In this document: positions 3,465 to 51,533 of the stretch, piece by piece
How the letters are laid out: every line of letters begins with the position of its first letter
Numbering within the stretch: the stretch's first letter is position 1
Source: a phage
Length of the DNA: 64,000 nucleotides
Strand: one strand, 5' to 3'
Sequence record: PZ347775.1
Notes under the pieces: model-generated
Databases searched by the model: none
The model's input: only the letters and a program-made list of their open reading frames with translations
Told to the model about the DNA's origin: nothing
Made by a program: the position numbers and the translations under genes

Positions 3465-3938
3465 TTATTTGAATGATTTGACGTACTGAATAGAGCCTTT
3501 GCTATTCACGAAAGCGATTTTACCATTTTTATTATACATGGTAGCAGTACGCTGATAGCCATAAGTTTGCTTACCAGATTGATAACCAACTAATGCAAAA
3601 TTATCTTCACCCATTTTATTCTGTTTAGCACGAATGCGTTCATGCCCATGCGCCATAAGAACCTTAGCATCACCAGTTGCAATGGATCTACGAGTTTTTT
3701 CATCTTCAACTGTATTAACAAAGTCGTCAAATGAATCAAATTTAGCATGGGATTTATTATACAGTTTTCCATCTACTGCATAATTGTATCCTTGTACATC
3801 CATCTCAACTTCTGTACCATCATCTAATACAGCAGTGATTTTTTGACCTTTTTTAAATTTCAAAAGATCAGTAAAAGATTCAGCAATAATTTGAGAATTA
3901 ATAGCTGCTTCAGTAATAAATTCTTGATATGTTTTCAT
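3465..3938 (-). CDS. internal protein with capsid-targeting sequence (IPII/IPIII locus)
   Basis: N-terminus MKTYQEFITEA matches the T4 internal-protein targeting leader with an (L/I)xE cleavage site. Confidence 0.75.
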   Translation of the reverse strand: MKTYQEFITEAAINSQIIAESFTDLLKFKKGQKITAVLDDGTEVEMDVQGYNYAVDGKLYNKSHAKFDSFDDFVNTVEDEKTRRSIATGDAKVLMAHGHERIRAKQNKMGEDNFALVGYQSGKQTYGYQRTATMYNKNGKIAFVNSKGSIQYVKSFK

Positions 3939-3954
3939 GTGTATCCTTTAATTT

Positions 3955-4272
3955 TTATTCTTTAGGGAAGTTTTTAGAATATGCATCATAAAGCTTATTT
4001 CCAATACGGCGGAAAACTCTAGCCGCAAAACGATTTTCTGGGTTTTTAATCATGATTTGCATCATATAAGTACCCGCGTCAGAAAGAGCTTCTTCATAGT
4101 ACCCGTTAATTTCTTTAAGAGTCCTACGTTTACCACCAGGACCATCAACAGTGATTTTCCATTTACCTGTAGAAGTGCGACTTGGCGGCTCAACTTGTTC
4201 AATCCAGATATAACCGCCTTCTACACGTTGTCCTTGGGCAGATTCTGCAATAAATTCTTTAAACGTTTTCAT
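3955..4272 (-). CDS. internal protein with capsid-targeting sequence (IPII/IPIII locus)
   Basis: N-terminus MKTFKEFIAESA; 105 aa; adjacent to lysozyme gene as in T4. Confidence 0.75.
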   Translation of the reverse strand: MKTFKEFIAESAQGQRVEGGYIWIEQVEPPSRTSTGKWKITVDGPGGKRRTLKEINGYYEEALSDAGTYMMQIMIKNPENRFAARVFRRIGNKLYDAYSKNFPKE

Positions 4273-8400: not shown

Positions 8401-8664
8401 TTATTTCATATTATTGAAATATTCTTCTGCGATTTCGTCGTTATCATGGTAAACTTTAGAAGACAGTTTAACATAACCTTCAGCAGTGAACATGTTAATC
8501 ACAACCTTTACAGTATACCACTGACCATCTTCATTACCCATTACTGCATAGGTTTCAAACATCGGATGGTCAGGACCGATAACTTTAATATCATTCACTG
8601 TACGACCGAAATCTTCTGAAACGCATTTCATAAAGAAGTTGAACAGTTCGCCGTAATTATCCAT
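8401..8664 (-). CDS. hypothetical protein
   Basis: start set at ATG 8664 (MDNYGELF) with GGAG SD; ORF-track start 8727 lacks SD. Confidence 0.5.
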   Translation of the reverse strand: MDNYGELFNFFMKCVSEDFGRTVNDIKVIGPDHPMFETYAVMGNEDGQWYTVKVVINMFTAEGYVKLSSKVYHDNDEIAEEYFNNMK

Positions 8665-8700
8665 TTTATTCTCCAAGTTGTTTTCTGTATCAGTAGTTGA

Positions 8701-8737
8701 TAGTTGTATAGTACCACGGAAAAACATGGATGTAAAC
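8701..8737 (-). promoter_or_regulatory. putative early promoter module
   Basis: minus strand GTTTAC then GGTACTATAC; shares the GATAG..GTAAAC module seen at 12.1-12.9 kb. Confidence 0.35.
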
Positions 8738-8865
8738 AGTTTTGTGAAAAAATTTTAAAAAGTTTTAGGGAATTCTAGGGAAGGGATGGGCAATTAAAGG
8801 ATAGGATAATATATTATAAAGGGTATAAACTAAATGATGCCTAGAGAGGCGCGGAAAGGCCTAGA

Positions 8866-8897
8866 TACCAAAAAGCCCCAACCTTTTGGTCGGGGTT
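8866..8897 (-). terminator. rho-independent terminator-like hairpin
   Basis: GC stem-loop CCCCAACC-TTTT-GGTCGGGG followed by T-run on minus strand; near-identical copy at 9421-9451. Confidence 0.5.
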
Positions 8898-8904
8898 AAG
8901 AATG

Positions 8905-9378
8905 TTATTTGATTTGTTTAGCAGACCAAATGCGGTCTTTAATAATTTTTTGGATGTCTTCAACATACTCAAGAGAGTGAACATGTGGATTATCTTTGAA
9001 ACTATAGGCACGGGCTAACTTTTGGCCTTCGGTTTTGATTACTAAAAGCTCTTTAAGGATAGCTTCATACTTAGCGATAATTCCTTTAACAATATTTTTT
9101 TCTTGTGTAGCTTTAGGATCTGCTTTAGGAGCAGGTTTACCCGAAGCCTTTGCAAAAGCAGCACCAGTAGCAACTAAACTTTTCCAGGCCATACTAACCG
9201 CATTTCCCGTAAATCCTTCGGCTTTCATATCACGAGCAAATTGGAATCGTGATTCATCGGAAGCATCTTTATAGGAATATTTACCCGCGGCAATGGCAGC
9301 TTTTGCAACAGCTTGAATTTCAGTGCTAGATGCTTCATTTAACACCGCTTCATTTAAAAATTGAGCATATGATTTCAT
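8905..9378 (-). CDS. hypothetical protein with capsid-targeting-like leader (candidate internal protein)
   Basis: N-terminus MKSYAQFLNEA resembles the MKTYQEFIxEA leader; Ala/Lys-rich; flanked by twin hairpins. Confidence 0.55.
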   Translation of the reverse strand: MKSYAQFLNEAVLNEASSTEIQAVAKAAIAAGKYSYKDASDESRFQFARDMKAEGFTGNAVSMAWKSLVATGAAFAKASGKPAPKADPKATQEKNIVKGIIAKYEAILKELLVIKTEGQKLARAYSFKDNPHVHSLEYVEDIQKIIKDRIWSAKQIK

Positions 9379-9420
9379 CTTATTTCCTGTTTTAATTCGT
9401 GGTTTTAATATACTTATTTA

Positions 9421-9451
9421 TACTAAAAAGCCCCAACCTTTCGGTCGGGGC
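9421..9451 (-). terminator. rho-independent terminator-like hairpin
   Basis: GCCCCAACC-TTTC-GGTCGGGGC followed by TTTTT on minus strand. Confidence 0.5.
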
Positions 9452-9455
9452 TAAG

Positions 9456-9760
9456 CCTTGCGGCAACCTTGTCGGGGTTCCACCTGCTAAGGCAAGTGTT
9501 TGTACGAAACGCCGGGATTCGAACCCGGTTATTAAGCAGTTGACGCTACTTAATATTTTTAAAAGGCCATATCTCGACCATATCCGAACGTTCCGTCAAA
9601 AACGCTACTCGGCTTACGGCAAAGATATTTCCTCGAATCGATAATTCTGTGCGCCGTTTCTGCTGTGATGTAAGGGGATATTAATAAATCATAAAGATTT
9701 ATTAAGACCAGTCCTTACACAGGGAACATCAGTCCGACGACTTACCGGTAGCGACCCGGT
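9456..9760 (-). ncRNA. candidate stable RNA with tRNA-like 3' domain (T4 species 1/2 RNA position)
   Basis: no ORF on minus strand; canonical T-arm CCGGG-UUCGAAU-CCCGG at 9528-9512 but no complete cloverleaf could be folded by hand. Confidence 0.3.
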
Positions 9761-9763
9761 TTC

Positions 9764-10114
9764 TTAATATTCTTTTAAAGCATCAATCTGTTCACGACGT
9801 TTACGCCATAAATCAATTGCTTCATACGCAGATTCAGCATTTCGAATTGGACGGCATTTATATAAAGACTCGTGATTTTGATATTGCGTAGATAACGTAA
9901 TTTTATCTAAAAGGTCTTTACGTTCAAAGTATTCGTAACCATCTAAGCCAAATGAACGATTTTTGAGAAATTGCCAATGACCATATTCGTTTTCGACATA
10001 AACATAATCCGCGTGTTGATAAAGCAAATTAATTACACGTTCAGAAATAACAGTGTCATTGTGATTAAAATAAAATGTTAAATCATGAACTACTAAATAA
10101 ACATTACCTTTCAT
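9764..10114 (-). CDS. hypothetical protein embedded in the tRNA region
   Basis: 116 aa ORF between tRNA-Arg and the stable-RNA candidate; no recognisable motif. Confidence 0.5.
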   Translation of the reverse strand: MKGNVYLVVHDLTFYFNHNDTVISERVINLLYQHADYVYVENEYGHWQFLKNRSFGLDGYEYFERKDLLDKITLSTQYQNHESLYKCRPIRNAESAYEAIDLWRKRREQIDALKEY

Positions 10115-12130: not shown

Positions 12131-12156
12131 TTTATTCTCCTCAGTAGTTGATAGGG

Positions 12157-12188
12157 TAATAATATCACTACCCCATCTAAAAGTAAAC
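12157..12188 (-). promoter_or_regulatory. early promoter / stem-loop cassette copy
   Basis: minus strand GTTTAC upstream of GTGATATTATTACCC; inverted repeat GGGTA/TACCC. Confidence 0.4.
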
Positions 12189-12198
12189 GGTTTATAAA

Positions 12199-12507
12199 CT
12201 ATTTTATTCCGCGTGATGCAATTGTGTTCTGCCGTTTAACACCAGTTTGTTTAAAGTCATGATTGTCGATTTGATCGGTACGAGCAACACCGAATGATGA
12301 TTTAATCTTAGCTTTAGATCCTTTAGTTATAGAAATAAACATCTCGGAAGCCCCTTTCTTAAAGTCCGAGGCGATTACTTCAACGCCGTTCTTAGCAAGT
12401 GACCTCAGAATTGCCTCCGCGTACTCATCATCAAGACTCGCCTGAGTATTAATAACGAATGTCTTTGGTGCAGTCGCTTCATTGATAAATTCTTGATATG
12501 TTTTCAT
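12199..12507 (-). CDS. internal protein with capsid-targeting sequence (ipI locus)
   Basis: start set at MKTYQEFINEA; ORF-track start 12519 adds four residues. Confidence 0.7.
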   Translation of the reverse strand: MKTYQEFINEATAPKTFVINTQASLDDEYAEAILRSLAKNGVEVIASDFKKGASEMFISITKGSKAKIKSSFGVARTDQIDNHDFKQTGVKRQNTIASRGIK

Positions 12508-12539
12508 TTTGATTTCCATTTAGTTTTGTTTTGATAGGG

Positions 12540-12571
12540 TAATAGTATCACAACTAAACCACCGTGTAAAC
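12540..12571 (-). promoter_or_regulatory. early promoter / stem-loop cassette copy
   Basis: minus strand GTTTAC, 18 nt, TACTAT within GTGATACTATTACCCTATC. Confidence 0.4.
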
Positions 12572-12574
12572 AAT

Positions 12575-12847
12575 TTATTTTAAATAAATTGCATATTTTT
12601 TATAACCAGCCGTCTCGTGACGCAGACCTTTTTCATTAGCAAAGCGTTCAATATTATTAATTTGATTCTGATCAAGTTCTGAAATATCAAATACAAAAAA
12701 GTTTCGTTTATTTCCTAACGTTACATGATTCGTCAAATCAATGTTATAAAGATGATTTATATTATCAATCATAGTCTTAACAGATTTGCTAATTTTTACT
12801 TCTTCATTAAGAGCAGATTCAACGATAAACTCTTTGAAAGTTTTCAT
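12575..12847 (-). CDS. internal protein with capsid-targeting sequence (ipI locus)
   Basis: N-terminus MKTFKEFIVESA; 90 aa. Confidence 0.7.
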   Translation of the reverse strand: MKTFKEFIVESALNEEVKISKSVKTMIDNINHLYNIDLTNHVTLGNKRNFFVFDISELDQNQINNIERFANEKGLRHETAGYKKYAIYLK

Positions 12848-12867
12848 TTTATTTTCCTAATTAATTT

Positions 12868-12907
12868 TGATGAGGTAATAGTATCACTACCTCATCAACG
12901 TGTAAAC
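12868..12907 (-). promoter_or_regulatory. early promoter / stem-loop cassette copy
   Basis: minus strand GTTTAC; perfect 9-bp inverted repeat GATGAGGTA/TACCTCATC enclosing the -10-like GTGATACTAT. Confidence 0.4.
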
Positions 12908-12919
12908 AACTTTGTGAAA

Positions 12920-51300: not shown

Positions 51301-51533
51301 AGATGTTACTAGAATTTAAACAATTTCTTTATGAAGCTTCTATTGATGAATTTATGGGTAAAATTGCCTCTTGCCAAACATTAGAAGGTCTAGAAGAACT
51401 TGAAGCTTATTATAAGAAAAGAGTTAAAGAAACTGAATTAAAAGATACTGATGACATCTCCGTGAGAGATGCTTTGGCAGGAAAAAGAGCTGAATTAGAA
51501 GATTCAGACGATGAAGTAGAAGAAAGCTTTTAA
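51291..51533 (+). CDS. uvsW.1: UvsW.1 small acidic protein
   Basis: 80 aa separate ORF immediately after uvsW. Confidence 0.8.
   Translation: MEKKMLLEFKQFLYEASIDEFMGKIASCQTLEGLEELEAYYKKRVKETELKDTDDISVRDALAGKRAELEDSDDEVEESF

Follow-up and report, generated by a model that had tools for sequence, protein, structure and literature searches.

For the internal proteins (IPs) of T4, two coding loci have been described, "the two Ip loci in T-even phages" (PMC12373910). In IPIII, the first 10 residues suffice for head targeting, for which residues 4 and 7 are chiefly needed, and processing depends on residues 8 and 10, with the prohead protease gp21 cutting after L/I-X-E (review of Black's work, PMC9026906). 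Past this leader Ip1-3 show no demonstrable similarity to each other, and Ip2 and Ip3, like Ip1, inhibit distinct GmrSD type IV restriction enzymes (2025 Nat Commun, PMC12373910). The four functionally characterised leader-bearing proteins are all anti-restriction factors (10.1101/2025.11.20.689424; PMC12373910). In the paper comparing phages PST and T4, IpIV-VI are named at the canonical loci only. A second described system, the PeSL stem-loop cassettes, was shown experimentally to excise as mini-circles in related phages (PMC2839356). In this study, we analysed a 64,000-nucleotide (nt) Tequatrovirus (T4-like) genome segment (record PZ347775.1, the window) and in it a 157-residue open reading frame (ORF), here called gene A, which lies between two hairpins, hpA upstream and hpA' downstream, in the spacer between the stable RNA genes rnaC/rnaD and the gene e.8 (Table 1). 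Gene A appears to encode a previously unrecognised internal protein of the T4 type at a third hypervariable, IP-type slot, and we give this reading, together with the mechanism proposed below, a probability of about 70%. The sequence features strongly support a late-expressed gene A protein with a functional-looking targeting and gp21 leader, in a third IP-type slot that would be reshuffled at terminator hairpins. By analogy, its product is probably an unrecognised injected protein and a candidate for an anti-defence function.

A preliminary description of this stretch likened the start of the ORF, MKSYAQFLNEA, to the capsid-targeting leader of the T4 internal proteins. The ORF and its start were confirmed, on the minus strand, and the likeness to the leader is good. 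Y4 and F7 of MKSYAQFLNE are identical to the residues at those positions in MKTYQEFIAE of IPIII, and with L8 and E10 gene A holds all four positions that are experimentally critical in IPIII, the first pair in targeting and the second in gp21 cleavage. The L/I-X-E motif at residues 8-10 ends in Glu, not Asp (L8-N9-E10/A11), and a second copy follows directly (L13-N14-E15/A16). We searched the 577 Met-initiated ORFs of at least 40 residues in the window with a strict leader pattern, MK[ST][YF].[EQ]F[IL].E, which matched five, namely gene A and four ORFs of the canonical IP loci (starts 3938, 4272, 12507 and 12847). An independent repeat search grouped the DNA that encodes these five leaders as a five-member family, D3. 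Gene A lies at neither known IP locus, as the preliminary description had stated. The canonical genes are found in the window at the ipI locus (12199-12847; 57B-tRNA.4) and at the ipII/III locus (3465-4272; e-denV), whereas gene A occupies the rnaC/rnaD-e.8 slot. The location of the Ip loci is, however, a historical description and not a mechanistic requirement. The 157-residue "IpIV" of phage PST was considered as a possible equivalent and rejected, since it is annotated at the ipII/III locus and so not at the gene A slot; it looks like the counterpart of the window's 157-residue ORF 3465-3938. In the literature, no paper was found that mentions the rnaC-e.8 locus or the ORFs described here.

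The ratio of non-synonymous to synonymous substitution rates among orthologues is 0.04-0.19, and gene A is therefore a real gene under purifying selection. It was found in 512 phage records, at one place per genome (512 places), and always in the same syntenic slot at the loci inspected in Tequatrovirus, Mosigvirus, Jiaodavirus and Tegunavirus; a check of related phages for the gene elsewhere, as proposed in the preliminary description, gave no other genomic position in these records. Homologues are present in Mosigvirus (~75% identity), in the Klebsiella phages of the genus Jiaodavirus (~50%), in the Tegunavirus Yersinia phage fHe-Yen9-01 and in metagenomic relatives, and an exhaustive HMMER search of 1.84 billion proteins returned 13 cluster representatives. 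The predicted mature protein has a mass of ~16.0 kDa, an isoelectric point (pI) of 9.50, 20 Lys residues (13.6%) and a net charge of +7, a basicity within the range of the window's canonical internal proteins (pI 8.0-9.7). In the AlphaFold (AF2) model (pLDDT 74), residues 1-15 are disordered, residues 18-75 form a confidently predicted small helical domain and residues 88-154 a long helical hairpin, and a linker rich in Pro and Lys (76-87) joins the two. Gene A thus has in common with the T4-type internal proteins a 10-residue leader with an aromatic residue at position 4, F7, L/I8, E10 and an L/I-X-E gp21 site, and it is likewise small, basic, Lys-rich, non-essential and patchily distributed. 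The mature parts of the family members are unrelated to each other, and that of gene A belongs to a distinct family, PHROG 2280. Bas37_0260, Ip2 and Ip3 are, like gene A, leader-bearing accessory genes of T-even phages; their function was recognised via the conserved N-terminal motif, and they set the precedent for injected proteins that inhibit type IV restriction (HIDEN-SEQ preprint, 10.1101/2025.11.20.689424; Silas et al. 2025, PMC12373910). They reside at the two canonical loci and have phenotypes, whereas gene A lies at another locus and is known here from its sequence.

The late-promoter octamer TATAAATA ahead of gene A matches perfectly what is reportedly the T4 late-promoter consensus. 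The octamer occurs 23 times on the two strands of the window, mostly directly ahead of late-gene starts. Among the A-carrying loci examined, the late box reads TATAAATA in 9 of 12 and AATAAATA in the remaining three, and the Klebsiella and Yersinia phages retain it despite a wholly different stem sequence in the adjoining hairpin. The T4 empty site has no late box, and the box belongs to the cassette. Gene A has its own perfect late promoter and terminators on both sides, in contrast to the window's canonical IP genes with their early-type promoters. Based on the conserved late box and the flanking terminators, gene A therefore appears to be set up as an insulated, late-only unit consisting of terminator, late promoter, gene and terminator. 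A T4-like phage contig from a metagenome, which carries the distant member P0086, has the same layout (tRNA-like 3' end, hairpin, CATAAATA, gene, hairpin, early promoter); its two hairpins have unlike stems and a common tail, TTTCGGG(G)TATCTA.

Several observations weigh against gene A as an internal protein in a mobile late cassette. No virion proteome covering the gene A protein was found in the literature. Sequence searches of Pfam, NCBIfam and the PDB gave no match, and Foldseek searches of the AF2 model against the PDB and BFVD were uninformative; therefore, no biochemical function can be assigned. Early-type promoters (GTTTAC N17 TAnnAT), and not TATAAATA, precede the window's canonical IP genes, so that the regulatory context of gene A differs from theirs. 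The three loci with AATAAATA are Mosigvirus-like. At several loci of Mosigvirus-like, Klebsiella and Yersinia phages, the gene is followed by a terminator that bears no relation to the upstream copy. The direct repeat thus characterises the arrangement in Tequatrovirus and, in part, in Mosigvirus rather than gene A as such. Finally, gene A is dispensable, since truncated and frameshifted alleles are frequent and T4 does without the gene altogether. Database alleles with 111, 108 and 93 residues all diverge right after "...AQEK", at an A7 run (9095-9101, minus strand); short alleles with 97 residues were also seen. The A7 run might be a hot spot of slippage by which the C-terminal helical hairpin is switched off, or a site where homopolymer sequencing errors recur. 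In Klebsiella phage KpV477 (record 67204-67440), an in-frame stop following residue 78 cuts the homologue short, and the annotated coding sequence (CDS) has 78 residues; other Jiaodaviruses carry the full 177-residue homologue.

The same properties could also be those of a real late protein that is packaged via its leader and plays a structural or physical role, as a prohead-core or DNA-condensing accessory whose Pro/Lys/Ala-rich linker touches DNA. The protein is basic and Lys-rich and has a PAPKADPKA-type linker, which is even longer in distant members. Mutants of IPIII slow head assembly (PMC9026906), the lysines of internal proteins contact DNA phosphates (PMC3012670), and the gene A protein has no similarity to any known inhibitor. 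However, its patchy presence among near-identical phages and its frequent truncation are more in keeping with an accessory gene of the arms race than with an assembly factor, and the characterised leader-bearing proteins have all turned out to be anti-restriction factors. We therefore regard a purely structural role as unlikely.

The leader-coding DNA belongs to a repeat family, so that the likeness of the leader might be a by-product of shuffled leader-coding DNA, with a late cytoplasmic product that is neither packaged nor cleaved. The lack of virion evidence and the promoter context unlike that of the canonical IP genes would agree with this. However, the leader DNA of gene A shares only 75% identity with the reference copy of D3, which argues against a recent transfer, and the leader is kept in relatives whose identity in the mature region is down to roughly 25-40%. 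Across the homologues of four genera and the metagenomic relatives, leader positions 2, 3, 5, 6 and 9 vary while the skeleton aromatic-x-x-F-[L/I/V]-x-E is retained, as in MKTYNEFLNE, MKSYAEFLTE, MLEYSEFLKE, MKFKEFLAE (one residue shorter, with the spacing kept), MLKFNEFLAE, MINFSDFLNE and MKSFSSFLNE. The exception is the distant member P0090 (MISFNEFVDGNLITE), which has Asp-Gly at residues 9-10 and its L/I-X-E motif moved to residues 13-15. Since the leader persists and variation spares the four critical positions, selection appears to act on the leader peptide rather than on hitch-hiking DNA, and we consider a by-product origin very improbable. A co-variation of the gene A leader with the canonical IP leaders of the same phage was also considered; no clear lineage-specific pattern was seen. 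The critical positions are essentially invariant in all phages examined, which supports a function of the leader. A loose version of the leader pattern matched a 76-residue ORF at 51303 (plus strand, MLLEFKQFLYE/A), which looks like gp67, a protein of the prohead core. In that case, the IP leader would be similar to the N-terminus of a gp21-cleaved core protein. A leader-like N-terminus is also seen in KpV477 gp2, the DNA end protector, which starts with MAIFEFITE/A.

The preliminary description further proposed that the gene is bracketed by near-identical hairpin and T-run elements. Because gene A is on the minus strand, the element at 9421-9451 is the upstream and that at 8866-8897 the downstream one. 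The two elements (repeat family D14) align as a direct repeat with 33 of 36 positions identical (92%), and the identity is not confined to the stem but takes in CTTA on its 5' flank and GTAT in its 3' tail. Both copies have the features of intrinsic terminators, a GC-rich hairpin directly followed by a T-run on the transcribed (minus) strand, and the records of phages G50, PhAPEC2 and Kha5h annotate these hairpins as terminators. No Rfam family reached the gathering threshold for either hairpin or for rnaC. With up to three mismatches allowed, the 26-nt hairpin core occurs exactly twice in the window (0.00 expected from 100 shuffles). Across phages, hpA was found in 691 genomes at 1,095 places in total, with one or two copies per genome among the matches listed. 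These counts rule out a dispersed, ubiquitous terminator, for which the preliminary description had allowed. T4 has hpA without gene A; the element is therefore resident and not the cassette's own, and is best described as an intrinsic-terminator-like element that ends the tRNA/rnaC unit. The downstream copy hpA' would terminate the late gene A transcript and would provide a second recombination joint. In PhAPEC2, both hpA copies carry a Mosigvirus-specific GA to TT change that disrupts the stem, which suggests exchange between the copies. The rnaC trailer just upstream of hpA (9456-9502, minus strand) contains CCCCGACAAGGTTG, a partial and imperfect copy of the hpA stem CCCCGACCGAAAGGTTGGGG, which is also present in T4 and may be a relic of an older duplication.

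In G50, ime09 and PhAPEC2, gene A is followed by another leader-bearing gene, gene B (187 residues, 165 records, leader MKTYAEFLTE/AAK), with AATAAATA ahead of it and a different hairpin, hpB, with the same CTTTTTGGTATCTAGGCC tail behind it. Both proteins are named "hypothetical" in the databases, with the sole exception of a UniRef entry for a Klebsiella phage orthologue ("Internal head protein"). Four states of the locus were observed, in which L denotes the rnaC trailer and e the e.8 upstream region: none in T4 and PST (L-hpA-e), A only in the window, AR1 and Kha5h (L-hpA-[Plate A]-hpA-e), B only in RB14 and RB69 (L-hpA-[B]-hpB-e), and A+B in G50 and PhAPEC2 (L-hpA-[A]-hpA-[B]-hpB-e). All differences among these states fall exactly at the hairpin/T-run, and the homologies available for crossover are 36 nt for hpA with hpA and the 9-nt GGGCTTTTT for hpA with hpB. 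The single hairpin of T4 and PST has the 5' flank (rnaC trailer) of the window's upstream copy and the 3' flank (GGTATCTAGGCC and the e.8 promoter region) of the downstream copy. The movable unit is thus the late promoter, gene A and one hairpin copy, with a period of 555 bp. Of the earlier proposal of a cassette inserted with its own terminators, the cassette behaviour is borne out by this hybrid empty site; the view that both terminators belong to it is not, hpA being resident in T4. Since A and B occur in several genera, a loss from T4 by recombination between the repeats would be at least as likely as an insertion in the window. That the hairpins are instead two independently maintained, convergent terminators with no part in the gain or loss of gene A would agree with their both being competent terminator-like structures and with the different downstream hairpin of some lineages, but we hold it to be very improbable, given an identity that extends into the flanks, a T4/PST empty site that is the exact hybrid expected from crossover, breaks at hairpins also in the B-only and A+B states, the low copy number (two in the window, one or two per genome among the matches listed) and the stem-disrupting change common to both PhAPEC2 copies.

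Genes A and B were also considered as tandem paralogs. Both score over their full length against PHROG 2280 ("unknown function"), and a Yersinia phage protein forms weak full-length bridges to them (pairwise E 5e-6 and 1e-8). However, BLASTP of A against B aligned the leader alone, and hhalign of the leader-trimmed alignments gave a probability of 1.5-6.5%, so that homology beyond the leader is unsupported, a relation like that among Ip1-3 (PMC12373910). In the equivalent slot of phage fHe-Yen9-01 (~74.0-75.8 kb), two tandem leader genes (189 residues, MLQYNEFLKE..., and 178 residues, MLEYSEFLKE...) lie behind a hairpin and TATAAATA, and the same phage has a 52-residue leader-bearing ORF (MKTYIEFINE...) among its tRNA genes.

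In its architecture the slot resembles the PeSL/PmSL cassettes (Arbiol et al. 2010, PMC2839356; Comeau et al. 2014, PMC4122927). In both, a GC-rich stem-loop terminator is coupled to a promoter, such elements lie beside a small accessory gene and contain the break points of indels that distinguish close relatives, and the model of excision and integration through recombination between flanking copies is directly applicable. At hpA and hpB, the states without genes, with A, with B and with A+B show copies that flank accessory genes and indels that break within the elements. However, PeSLs couple a sigma-70-like early promoter to the stem-loop, whereas here a late octamer follows it and an early promoter is found only further on, before e.8. 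The term "late promoter" is absent from PMC2839356, and PMC4122927 describes early and middle types only. The crossover zone is the hairpin/T-run and not the AT-rich or -10/Shine-Dalgarno region of PeSL, and the repeat is locus-specific (one or two copies per genome among the matches listed) rather than a dispersed family.

Taken together, the following model of the gene A unit may be proposed. Given its hairpin, stability and T-run, hpA would stop the early and middle tRNA/rnaC transcripts. Late in infection, the conserved TATAAATA would drive gene A alone, and the second hpA copy is expected to stop this transcript before the e.8 early promoter. As the prohead assembles, the conserved motif MKSYAQFLNE would then dock the protein to its gp22 scaffold core. 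By comparison with IPIII mutagenesis, gp21 would cut after Glu10 and/or Glu15 and release a basic, Lys-rich helical protein of ~16 kDa, which would stay with the DNA and be ejected into the next host. In analogy with Ip1, Ip2, Ip3 and Bas37_0260, this cargo probably acts as a specific inhibitor against one of the host's first-line defences, for example a type IV restriction variant. The hpA repeats would serve as recombination joints, where exchange deletes the late promoter, gene A and one hairpin or inserts the unit via a circle, as in the PeSL model. Together with gene B and hpB, such exchange at the observed breakpoints would yield the four natural arrangements.

It is tempting to speculate further that the rnaC-e.8 spacer is a third IP locus of the Tevenvirinae, which encodes two or more new families of proteins (A, 157 residues; B, 187 residues) that are loaded into the capsid, are injected and specifically inhibit first-line defences outside the range of Ip1-3, and that reshuffling of terminators and late promoters makes all states and tunes host range. 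This wider proposal is tentative, and we hold it to be somewhat more doubtful than not. Injected internal proteins of T-even phages were only recently shown to be highly specific type IV restriction inhibitors, and they have been treated as a two-locus system. A third locus would add two further leader-bearing families as concrete anti-defence candidates, in hundreds of therapeutic-type coliphages and in Shigella, Klebsiella and Yersinia phages. Potentially, it might explain differences in host range among otherwise near-identical phages, and the phages without either gene, with A, with B or with both already offer natural, isogenic-like comparisons. The terminator/late-promoter joints would bring late-expressed genes within the PeSL concept, in which promoter-terminator cassettes act as linkers for recombination. 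The unit of leader and late promoter could also be a compact natural cassette for the loading of cargo into T4-type heads.

A 1.2-kb query around gene A matches Escherichia phage ECO07P3 at 99.8% identity and hundreds of coliphages and Shigella phages at ~95%. In this part of the window all genes are on the minus strand. Along the direction of transcription, gene 1, 57A, 57B, two ipI-locus genes, homologues of tRNA.4-.2, eleven tRNAs (11152-10131) and a 116-residue ORF are followed by rnaD, rnaC, gene A, e.8, e.7 and further genes up to nudE, e and two ipII/III-locus genes.

Table 1. Features of the rnaD-e.8 region in the direction of transcription. The z-scores of the hairpins are relative to shuffled sequences.
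Feature	Coordinates	Strand	Evidence
rnaD	9649-9764	-	blastn of T4 rnaD: 88% over 117 nt
rnaC (species 1 RNA), final gene of the tRNA/stable-RNA transcription unit, upstream of the cassette	9503-9641	-	blastn of T4 rnaC: 97.8% over 139 nt; Kha5h and T4 annotation
hpA, upstream copy of the 36-nt repeat; stem 9452-9429 (10 bp) and CTTTTT; -20.3 kcal/mol, z -4.2	9420-9455	-	repeat family D14, terminator scan, folding
Late-promoter box TATAAATA, perfect consensus match; 2 nt past the hpA T-run, 36 nt ahead of the gene A ATG	9415-9422	-	motif count and conservation
Shine-Dalgarno sequence AGGA, 6 nt ahead of the gene A ATG	9385-9388	-	sequence reading
Gene A, 157-residue protein, PHROG 2280 (= AR1_137 / RB32ORF132c)	8905-9378	-	ATG at 9378, stop 8905-8907, starts MKSYAQFLNEAVLNEASS
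Leader-coding segment, codons 1-10 (MKSYAQFLNE), putative capsid-targeting sequence and gp21 motif L-N-E/A; duplicated LNEA module reaches 9334	9349-9378	-	D3 repeat family; leader pattern, 5/577
hpA', downstream copy of the 36-nt repeat; stem 8895-8876 (8 bp) and CTTTTT, then GGTATCTAGGCC as in the T4 empty site; -15.1 kcal/mol, z -3.3	8865-8900	-	D14, terminator scan, folding
Early-promoter cassette (TTTACA N17 TACTAT) before e.8, conserved right-hand border of the variable slot	8695-8742 (promoter 8736-8708)	-	promoter scan; repeat family D2; near-identical in T4
e.8 CDS	8401-8664	-	

The 116-residue ORF (9764-10114, minus strand; PHROG 3355, unknown function; AR1_139) lies between rnaD and tRNA-Arg. 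In T4 and PST, the rnaD-tRNA-Arg interval has no ORF, and both carry segB just upstream of tRNA-Arg instead. The tRNA set of the window also differs from that of T4, with His, Asn, Tyr and Met tRNAs present. At the ipI locus, the window has two leader-bearing genes (12199-12519 and 12575-12847, minus strand; PHROGs 2667 and 7673, "internal head protein") in place of the single ipI of T4. A near-identical, PeSL-like early-promoter cassette precedes each of them (family D2: 8695-8742, 12146-12193, 12529-12576 and 12865-12912). At the ipII locus, a 105-residue ORF (3955-4272, minus strand; PHROG 3966, "unknown function") starts with the leader MKTFKEFIAE/S and looks like another internal protein that the family databases do not name as such.

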